A DNA stretch of 64,000 nt. Origin: Escherichia phage KEP4. The translations under genes and the position numbers were made by a program. The DNA is taken from sequence record PP047754, one strand, 5' to 3'. Shown piece by piece: positions 28,984 through 30,755 of this stretch. The number at the start of each line of letters is the position of its first letter. Position 1 is the first letter of the stretch. The notes under the pieces are model-generated. The model saw only the letters and a list, made by a program, of their open reading frames with translations. It was not told the DNA's origin and did not search any database.

Positions 28984-30309
28984 TTATAGGCCCAATGCCT
29001 TTTCAAGATCATCTAAATCTTCAGTATAAAGATCGATGTCTTGCTTATTATTTAATTCTTCTCGTTGAACTTCTAAATTCTTTATCTGGTTCAACAAACG
29101 TTCACGGGCATCTAGTGTAATTGATGATAAAGACATCTTGAATAAATCATCGAGATCGCCATCAAAATCAGGATAGTCTGTCTGGAATAACGCTTTCAGT
29201 TCCGTGAGGCTCCGGCGCATATCTGTAACGACAGCCCACCCAATGAATATGGCACGATTGTTCAAACGGTGTATTTTGTCGGTCAATTCCTTGATAAGAT
29301 ACTGACGTCTATCTTCATAGCGACTCAGGCGATAATTGAAAAATGGAAGCAACATATCTTTCCAACCATCGTAACGGTGAATAACACCATCTTCATCCCA
29401 AGCTGTCCACACGGGCTTATTAGCTGAATAGAGACGGAACATCTGTTCAACCTGTTCGTCATTCAACTTAGACAATTCACCCCGCTTGAATACAACAGTG
29501 ATATCCCAACCATCTTCGGTCGTATCGTTAGCATATTCAGTGAGTACGCCGGATTTGTACAACGGCAACAACACTTTGGTCTCATAGGTTTTAGAGAACC
29601 AGCCGATAGGGACTTCTGTGATGTTCAGAGTGGTTGCATTGACTCGGGTGAACAAACCACGACTGTATGCTCTTCCTTCCTCAGTATAGCCTGTCTCTCC
29701 TTTGAAACCATTCCAGTACGGTTTTAAGTCTTTCGGGTCTTCGCCACGGAGAAGTGCTCTCAGGGCACTGAGCACGGACTTAACGCAGTGACATGGGGTG
29801 TCGGTGGCATAACCCGAGCCGATACCATTGATACCATTCACGAGAAACATGGGCAGGATGGGTAAAAAGAATTTCGGCTCCAGTTTCTCTTCCCCAAGAT
29901 AATTGTATTCCAATATCCCATCGTCCTCCTTTCGGAAGATCTTACGGATAACTTCAGACACTGCCACTGAAATATAACGAGCGGAAGACGCTTCGCGCCC
30001 CATGATTGAACCAAACTGTCCGTCGCGGTCAAAGTATGGGATGTTATTCGTACCTGGGAACCCCTGAGCCATGTTCACGATCGTACCGCTCATGTTCTCA
30101 CCACCAGATTTGTAATTCGTGCGAGCGGCGGCGAACATGCCAAGGCGGTCAACAATCTCCTCCTTGTTGTATTCAAGAGCAGCGAAGAGTATCTTGCGCT
30201 GGCTTGGCTTCAGGCTGTCAATCAGCTGAGGGATTTGACGGATGCTGTTGACCACGGAAAACTCCTTGTGATCACCATTTATGAAATCCGTCACGGTAAT
30301 AGTCGTCAT
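28984..30309 (-). CDS. DNA topoisomerase II medium subunit (T4 gp52-like, GyrA-type)
   Basis: N-terminal DNA-gate region PSQRKILFAALE and catalytic Tyr region; 441 aa. Confidence 0.85.
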   Translation of the reverse strand: MTTITVTDFINGDHKEFSVVNSIRQIPQLIDSLKPSQRKILFAALEYNKEEIVDRLGMFAAARTNYKSGGENMSGTIVNMAQGFPGTNNIPYFDRDGQFGSIMGREASSARYISVAVSEVIRKIFRKEDDGILEYNYLGEEKLEPKFFLPILPMFLVNGINGIGSGYATDTPCHCVKSVLSALRALLRGEDPKDLKPYWNGFKGETGYTEEGRAYSRGLFTRVNATTLNITEVPIGWFSKTYETKVLLPLYKSGVLTEYANDTTEDGWDITVVFKRGELSKLNDEQVEQMFRLYSANKPVWTAWDEDGVIHRYDGWKDMLLPFFNYRLSRYEDRRQYLIKELTDKIHRLNNRAIFIGWAVVTDMRRSLTELKALFQTDYPDFDGDLDDLFKMSLSSITLDARERLLNQIKNLEVQREELNNKQDIDLYTEDLDDLEKALGL

Positions 30310-30755
30310 TTATCGTATCCCCCTAAATTAAATACGTCCACTTGGTAATCGACCAACCAAGATACCAGTTTAATCGCTTGTTCCGATTCATCTGATTCAT
30401 CAAGAGTGTAATATGGTTTACCCGTCCCTTTAAGCGGGTCATACACCACCAATTTACCATCTCGAGTGTCCAACAATATCTGATGTAATATGCCAGGGGA
30501 AGTCAGGGAAGGGGCGACCAGGACATAAACATAATCGTGATAAATCGTTATATTTTGATTAGCCCCACGCCCAGCTATAAATGGCACACCATTGAGATGC
30601 AGTGCGTCACCAATAGTCATCTCAAATGATTCGAATGAATCATGGAATTCGTCAATAACATTCTGTACAGGGCGGTCGAGAATCATGGCCAAACACGCAG
30701 ACATACAAGTGTTGCCTGTCGGTTGTTTTTGGTGTACTAATGGATTCAAAACCAT
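30306..30755 (-). CDS. papain-like (C39-type) cysteine peptidase domain protein
   Basis: QKQPTGNTCMSACLAMIL (Q..C) and downstream His; start trimmed to ATG 30755. Confidence 0.5.
   Translation of the reverse strand: MVLNPLVHQKQPTGNTCMSACLAMILDRPVQNVIDEFHDSFESFEMTIGDALHLNGVPFIAGRGANQNITIYHDYVYVLVAPSLTSPGILHQILLDTRDGKLVVYDPLKGTGKPYYTLDESDESEQAIKLVSWLVDYQVDVFNLGGYDK

Follow-up and report, generated by a model that had tools for sequence, protein, structure and literature searches.

A predicted C39-like cysteine peptidase encoded by an optional cassette between the topoisomerase II genes of a Kuttervirus phage

Enzymes of the C39 family are usually found as the N-terminal domain of bacteriocin-exporting ATP-binding cassette (ABC) transporters, where they cut after a Gly-Gly leader motif. 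The stand-alone C39-like proteins of family PF13529 are larger and more richly decorated in structure, and are found in association with genes for transporters (PMC10318531). Among phage proteins, PHROG 4049 was named a C39-like peptidase by Gendre et al. 2022 (PMC9409062), and some homologues are already labelled C39 peptidases in UniRef and in one Shewanella phage record. With respect to the genomic location, the topoisomerase genes 39 and 60 of phage T4 carry mobA plus a 50-nt bypass cassette between them (PMC2988022; bioRxiv 10.1101/2022.08.31.505936). The present analysis concerns a 64,000-nucleotide stretch of Escherichia phage KEP4 (sequence record PP047754), referred to here as the window, which comes from a Kuttervirus (Ackermannviridae) and in which an open reading frame (ORF) for a C39-like protein sits between the gp39-like and gp52-like topoisomerase II genes. 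The C39-like label is already published, and what is added here is the evidence on the catalytic residues, the family's size and its specificity to phages, the presence/absence polymorphism of the slot that the gene occupies, and the history of the cassette, which is decoupled from that of its flanks.

The C39-like gene was located at 30306..30755 on the minus strand, with its ATG at 30755, and encodes 149 amino acids (aa) plus stop. The protein begins with MVLNPLVHQKQPTGNTCMSACLAMIL and carries the motif QKQPTGNTCMSACLAMIL at residues 9-26, with H91 and D106-P107 further downstream, in agreement with the ORF coordinates, strand and motif given in the original prediction, which had read the gene, from the DNA alone, as a papain-like (C39-type) peptidase inserted between two topoisomerase II subunit genes. 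The flanking genes were equally recognized by their Pfam domains, the upstream one being the topoisomerase II large subunit (gp39-like, 30757..32670, minus; DNA_gyraseB, Toprim, TOPRIM_C and HATPase_c; PHROG 543) and the downstream one the medium subunit (gp52-like, 28984..30309, minus; DNA_topoisoIV/GyrA-type, E 1.9e-65; PHROG 551). The 3.8 kb surrounding the C39-like gene exhibit 98.9% identity to Salmonella phage SeF6a and 98.6-98.7% identity to SeSz-1, Marshall and Maynard.

The ORF starts 1 nt past the gp39 stop (TAA). Its Shine-Dalgarno sequence, GGAAGGGGA, lies within the final codons of gp39 (30761..30769, minus) and is specific to the phages that carry the cassette, while phages with an empty slot have CGAGGATGA at the same position. 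At the other end, the TGA of the C39-like gene overlaps the ATG of the gp52-like gene as ATGA (30306..30309, minus), an arrangement that, as read from the sequence, is one of translational coupling with the gp52-like gene. In the records of SeF6a and ST2, the gene is called from an upstream ATG (531 or 519 nt; window 30306-30836) and overlaps the end of gp39 in a different frame. The corresponding extended ORF of 176 aa (ATG 30836) was ruled out because its extra codons lie out of frame over gp39 and because homologues, aligned from nine phage groups, start at MVLNP. These N-termini and the Shine-Dalgarno sequence speak for the 149-aa form from ATG 30755.

Direct sequence search with the window protein returned a single match, PHROG 4049 ('unknown function'; E 1.7e-53). 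The window protein gave no match to PF03412 at E<=1 and lies below the Pfam gathering threshold, weak matches to this family being observed in 11 of 120 relatives (best E 0.01, 15.6 bits vs a cutoff of 22). For PF13529 (Peptidase_C39_2) there was no significant match, only 2 of the 120 relatives being faintly similar (best E 0.096), and searches of PDB sequences, by single sequence and by profile, produced nothing usable. The His-Asp-Pro stretch of the YopT-like PfhB2 was considered as well and rejected as a marginal near-match (E 0.5-0.8). When 51 database proteins carrying PF03412 were aligned and compared with the family profile by hhalign, a probability of 95.5% (E 1.5e-8) was obtained, with Q11, C17 and D106-P107 placed on the conserved Q, C and D-P columns of the PF03412 proteins, and the context of Cys17, C-x3-C-L-A-M-I, is almost the C39 motif. 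By this profile comparison the protein is homologous to C39 peptidase domains. The name 'C39-like' is more accurate than 'C39 member', because the Pfam threshold is not reached and the protein is not fused to a transporter.

The predicted catalytic residues are highly conserved throughout the family, as seen in an alignment of 120 homologues, 115 of them full-length and five N-terminally truncated gene calls without Q11 and C17. Gln11 (CAA, 30723..30725, minus), the predicted oxyanion-hole residue, is invariant in 115/115 full-length sequences and aligns with the conserved Gln of PF03412; Cys17 (TGT, 30705..30707, minus), the predicted nucleophile, is likewise invariant in 115/115 and falls on the catalytic Cys column of PF03412. 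The predicted general base, His91 (CAT, 30483..30485, minus), and the predicted third catalytic residue, Asp106 (GAC, 30438..30440, minus), which belongs to an invariant Asp-Pro aligned with the D-P of PF03412, are invariant in 120/120, as are C21, H38, S83 and P107. His91 and Asp106 are 15 residues apart, compared with 16 residues in the PF03412 set. Three further residues, H38 (30642-30644), S83 (30507-30509) and Y116 (30408-30410), are invariant or nearly so in the phage family and have no conserved PF03412 counterpart; judged from this pattern, they may define the substrate pocket of the family. The disordered C-terminal tail (residues 143-149, 30306-30329, minus) contains Leu-Gly-Gly, which is Val-Gly-Gly in Ag3 and Ile-Gly-Ala in CRW-SP2. 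This Gly-Gly-type motif is not conserved in distant homologues, and it could be a self-cleavage site or a coincidence.

The structure prediction that had been proposed as a check on the original prediction yielded a papain-like fold. The AlphaFold2 (AF2) model has a predicted local distance difference test score (pLDDT) of 89.7 and a predicted template modelling score (pTM) of 0.86. In this model Cys17 opens helix 17-26, His91 takes the second place in strand 90-96 and Asp106 comes after strand 103-105, and this predicted placement of Cys, His and Asp is the papain arrangement. The modelled protein displays the characters of the clan CA papain-like fold, namely an alpha/beta two-lobe architecture with Cys at a helix N-terminus and with His and Asp on or just behind adjacent strands, and the modelled strand position of His91 favours its equivalence to the C39 catalytic His. 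The top Foldseek match was PCAT1 (E 5e-4), and the five highest-ranking structures were without exception leader-peptide peptidases or C39-like proteins. Lower-scoring matches with the papain fold included pseudomurein isopeptidase (8.8), a phytochelatin-synthase-like protein (8.2) and staphopain (8.1), and the Josephin, UfSP and ZUFSP deubiquitinases scored about 7.

The occurrence of the gene is sporadic. In a survey with a 1050-nt query (gp39 end, gene and gp52 start), which matched 282 Ackermannviridae records, the gene was covered in only 38/282. The remaining records align in two pieces spanning about 610 nt, and therefore their topoisomerase genes are directly adjacent, as is also the case in the annotations of heyday and dinky. 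In MK-13, too, the two topoisomerase genes adjoin each other without the C39-like gene, though its flanks are 99.2% identical to those of Ag3. The same gp39/gp52 junction accommodates other inserts, such as a GIY-YIG homing endonuclease in Salmonella phage KE30 (locus L012, 2801-3502; Pfam E 8e-8), a 190-aa ORF whose AP2 match stays below threshold (E 1.4e-6) in Dickeya phage XF4 (locus L013, 2808-3380), and an unannotated 88-aa hydrophobic ORF that looks like a two-pass membrane protein in Erwinia phage phiEa2809 (locus L014, about 2800-3116). The suggestion that T4 relatives often carry accessory inserts at this place was borne out by the 38/282 records and by the other inserts at the junction, with the correction that the phage belongs to Ackermannviridae (Kuttervirus) and is not a strict T4 relative. 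The C39-like gene is an optional accessory gene and not part of the topoisomerase, because most relatives are without it and because homologues occur in unrelated phages lacking such a topoisomerase. It shares with homing endonucleases the sporadic presence at one precise site and a history decoupled from the flanks; searches of Pfam, PHROG and NCBIfam and a fold search revealed no nuclease domain in the C39-like protein. ST2, UTK0004 and maane harbour an HNH homing endonuclease gene in the interval from the MazG-like gene to gp39 (L021 5731-6579, L022 5749-6579 and L023 5752-6582, respectively), that of maane being split, and the window has only a 49-nt spacer (32671-32719) at that place.

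Differential histories were observed for the cassette and its flanks. The 450-nt gene is 100% identical in 24/27 Kuttervirus records and at least 99.3% identical in the others. Compared with allotria, ST2, UTK0004 and maane, a substitution-free tract of 506 nt (30272..30777), found as the maximal identical tract by sliding identity, comprises the cassette plus 22-34 nt on each flank, and outside this tract the identity is 92-94% immediately and 72-85% deeper in gp39; at a flanking divergence of 6-7%, 506 positions would remain unchanged by chance with a probability of about 1e-14 to 1e-16. For the same Kuttervirus pairs, the synonymous divergence (pS) is 0 in the cassette, 0.46-0.61 in gp39 and 0.09-0.20 in gp52. 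Recent horizontal spread is indicated, because the cassette is identical while the flanks show a synonymous divergence of 0.09-0.61. The flanks of the window are nearer to those of the empty-slot phages heyday and dinky (98-100%) than to those of other carriers, and gp39 and gp52 of carriers and non-carriers share 97-100% identity along the greater part of their sequence. A vertically inherited gene that was lost several times in Kuttervirus was ruled out, given 0 substitutions in the cassette against the synonymous divergence of the flanks, and is also contradicted by the empty-slot phages keeping the ancestral gp52 start MVAKSIT, which is absent from carriers, where the first codons read MTTIT. 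Taken together, the data on the cassette and its flanks show a discrete module that co-infecting phages exchange by recombination.

Over a longer range, the three cassette types (Kuttervirus, Ag3 and CRW-SP2) exhibit 60-67% protein identity, and their synonymous sites are saturated (pS about 0.8); when the window is compared with Ag3, gp39 has 96.5% protein identity with pS 0.40, and gp52 has pS 0.59. The GC content at third codon positions (GC3) is 39% in the cassette, 51% in gp52 and 64% in gp39. The insertion is accompanied by changes at its borders, since 4 of the last 13 nt of gp39 differ between carriers and empty phages, supplying the new Shine-Dalgarno sequence, and in Ag3 the insert is bounded by repeated TAAGATGG. 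The gp39-like gene (30757-32670) is itself a strong mosaic, in which blocks of 99-100% identity to other carriers alternate with blocks of 72-85%, and gp52 is far more uniform; the overall GC of the gp39-like gene is 51.6%, compared with 45% for the window. Two records at this locus, MN871475.1 ('Pseudomonas phage Pa-sanjiao') and OR844942.1 ('Enterococcus phage Efm 3-10'), are 98% and 93% identical, respectively, to Salmonella Kutterviruses, and their host labels look doubtful, through contamination or mislabelling.

The family extends far beyond Ackermannviridae. An exhaustive profile search over 1.84 billion representatives revealed 1043 clusters (at 50% identity) at a threshold of E<=1e-3 and 704 at E<=1e-10, and among the 150 matches listed almost all are stand-alone proteins of 130-160 aa. 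Together with the PHROG 4049 match and the invariant residues, this number places the ORF far beyond a chance occurrence. By tblastn, the family was detected in 197/50,697 phage records, the phages concerned including Ackermannviridae, Queuovirinae (CAjan and several BASEL phages), Vequintavirinae, Stephanstirmvirinae and Samunavirus, as well as phiVC8-type Vibrio podophages and Erwinia and Pectobacterium phages. In each of those phage groups, and in Enhodamvirus, the homologues lie in arrays made up of small early genes; the lambdoid prophages of Yersinia and Raoultella have the homologue in the early-left region, close upstream of xis/int, and in the Yersinia prophage it is downstream of a Rad52-type recombination gene. 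A homologue was also present on a 265-kb metagenomic contig. Longer metagenome relatives (P0200, P0074 and P0239) are fused to a YunG-like phage domain (E 3.5e-9), a C-terminal zinc ribbon or an unidentified 117-aa N-terminal extension; such fusions are sporadic and could be real or merged gene calls.

Gene neighbourhoods were screened by all-against-all BLASTP of the ORFs within 2.5-3 kb, at 11 loci and then at 55 loci from 23 lineages. No conserved neighbour was found across the 55 loci, the best recurrent one being an HslV-like gene located 250-390 nt downstream in 4 lineages, all apparently Queuovirinae. Neither an ABC transporter nor a gene for a Gly-Gly substrate was detected in about 55 loci, the neighbours being topoisomerase genes here and small early genes elsewhere. 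As no transporter, substrate or conserved neighbour accompanies the gene at these 55 loci, the protein would act alone and is not tied to the topoisomerase. In the window itself, the neighbouring accessory genes include one at 26824-27444 (minus), named 'phosphatase' in SeF6a and 'Tk.4 protein' for the counterpart in heyday and Ag3, and a MazG-like pyrophosphatase by the annotation of close relatives at 32720-33298 (minus). These annotations of neighbours in relatives suggest that genes for host takeover are abundant around the topoisomerase genes.

Taken together, we regard it as probable, though by no means secure, that the gene encodes an active cytoplasmic Cys-His-Asp peptidase, made with the replication genes, which cuts a host protein or peptide, possibly a component of a defence system, at a small-residue site. 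The gene would be translated within the topoisomerase II operon from its own Shine-Dalgarno sequence, and because of this operon position its expression is expected early or mid infection, together with the replication genes. In the cytoplasm of the infected cell, the product would be a stand-alone papain-fold enzyme, nearest to the C39 family, and would, like C39 enzymes, cleave its host target at a Gly-Gly-type site. An advantage to the phage would arise in some hosts only, and this proposed limit would account for the patchy distribution together with the rapid spread; the cassette itself enters and leaves the gp39/gp52 junction as a discrete unit when co-infecting Ackermannviridae phages recombine.

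Several observations weigh against this reading. Acyltransferases, deamidases and transpeptidases are also found among papain-fold Cys-His-Asp enzymes. No significant match to the window protein was obtained in NCBIfam, in PDB sequences or in Pfam, where the best score (E 0.21) belonged to an unrelated family, and the 'CG' that follows the C39 nucleophile is replaced by C[MV][SA] in the phage family. hhalign pairs His91 with the His of the C39 'HW..NHF' block that is not catalytic and opens a gap of 6 residues, and because of this ambiguous register the assignment of His91 rests on its invariance, the His-Asp spacing and the model. No candidate substrate emerged from the neighbourhoods of the 55 loci in 23 lineages. 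A specific tie to defence systems is likewise lacking, as a PADLOC search with the family gave no match and, among plasmids, a homologue was present in just 2 of 72,556 records, which is no sign of use in plasmid anti-defence islands. In the full-text literature, no published functional study of any family member was found, the annotation table in PMC9409062 being the only mention. The C39/papain-like assignment made at the outset is accordingly upheld by the AF2/Foldseek fold, the hhalign probability and the invariance of Q11, C17, H91 and D106, and is limited by the missed Pfam C39 threshold, the missing ABC transporter and the His register.

Other explanations were weighed on the same evidence. 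The protein could be a papain-fold enzyme other than a protease, such as an acyltransferase, deamidase, transglutaminase or gamma-glutamyl/glycine transpeptidase whose target is a small molecule of the host or a protein side chain, and the breadth of chemistry known for the fold leaves some room for it; this is unlikely, however, as the five best structural matches are peptidases of the leader-peptide type or C39-like proteins and the conserved Gln-x5-Cys...His...Asp-Pro is a peptidase pattern. It is rather improbable that it is an isopeptidase or 'clippase' that trims ubiquitin-like modifiers, which have Gly-Gly-type tails, and so counters type II CBASS Cap2/Cap3 or Bil. An equally low chance is given to the boldest version, a counter-defence protease (a ubiquitin-like protein (Ubl) deconjugase/'clippase' or a cutter of another defence protein at a Gly-Gly-type site) sweeping through Ackermannviridae by homing-endonuclease-induced gene conversion at the topoisomerase II locus.

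Two further explanations start from the locus itself. The peptidase activity might be irrelevant or lost, the gene being a selfish or 'filler' insert that disrupts a homing-endonuclease target at the empty junction, or a non-catalytic HlyB-like binding domain. The GIY-YIG endonuclease at the same junction of KE30 and the HNH genes just upstream of gp39 in ST2, UTK0004 and maane are in line with a filler, as are the alteration of 4 of the last 13 nt of gp39 and of the first codons of gp52 by the cassette and its spread with very short flanking tracts. We nevertheless hold this to be very improbable; loss of the catalytic Cys, as in the HlyB-type non-catalytic C39-like domain, was not seen, Cys17 being present in all 115 full-length homologues, and the ratio of nonsynonymous to synonymous divergence (dN/dS) of 0.078 between the Ag3 and Se-J copies points to purifying selection as an enzyme. 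A role in processing phage proteins, for example in maturing a flanking topoisomerase subunit or removing the leader of another phage product, might be read from the apparent translational coupling to both topoisomerase genes and from the different first codons of gp52 in carriers (MTTIT) and empty-slot phages (MVAKSIT). Its likelihood is the slightest of all, since about 87% of the related records have the same topoisomerase without the gene, homologues from various phages and prophages have neither such a topoisomerase nor any conserved gene beside them, and gp39 and gp52 are 97-100% identical between carriers and non-carriers over most of their length. The reading of a cytoplasmic peptidase with a host target is preferred to all of these.

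If the protein is active, it would stand for a family of minimal cytoplasmic cysteine peptidases of early infection that is phage-specific and widespread (about 1,000 clusters at 50% identity; 197/50,697 phage records), and identification of the substrate could uncover something in the host, a function or a defence, that has to be disabled by many unrelated phages infecting Gammaproteobacteria. The carriers and non-carriers among Kuttervirus, with flanks of 97-100% identity, constitute natural isogenic pairs in which host-range tests would be straightforward. The identical cassette in diverged backbones provides a clean case for the spread of a non-nuclease accessory gene through a locus frequented by homing endonucleases, and if a counter-defence protease did hitch-hike on endonuclease-induced conversion, it would be a nuclease-free gene with super-Mendelian inheritance. 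Proof of a defence-related substrate, or of spread assisted by endonucleases, would make the gene far more interesting.

In comparison with the known systems, Peptidase C39 (PF03412; PCAT1, ComA, LahT and CvaB) is a transporter domain, whereas the protein described here is phage-encoded, scores below the Pfam gathering score and is neither fused nor adjacent to an ABC transporter; the phage family also differs from PF03412 by C[MV][SA] in place of 'CG' and by the additional invariant H38, S83 (of a PSLN motif) and Y116. Unlike the stand-alone C39-like proteins of PF13529 (PDB 3erv, Bacillus anthracis), the phage family is minimal and without transporter neighbours. The annotated gene of SeF6a in GenBank is the same gene, 100% identical over 450 nt, and the re-annotation of PHROG 4049 (PMC9409062) consists of a label from structure prediction and does not deal with the catalytic residues, the breadth of the family, the variable slot or mobility. 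The nearest parallel in genomic behaviour is the mobA cassette of T4, which is likewise a discrete insert in the topoisomerase II cluster, present or absent among relatives, at a locus visited by homing endonucleases. The T4 cassette, however, has its own endonuclease and interrupts a coding sequence, whereas the C39-like cassette lies exactly between two genes and encodes a predicted peptidase with no nuclease domain, so that any help from an endonuclease in its spread would have to come in trans.

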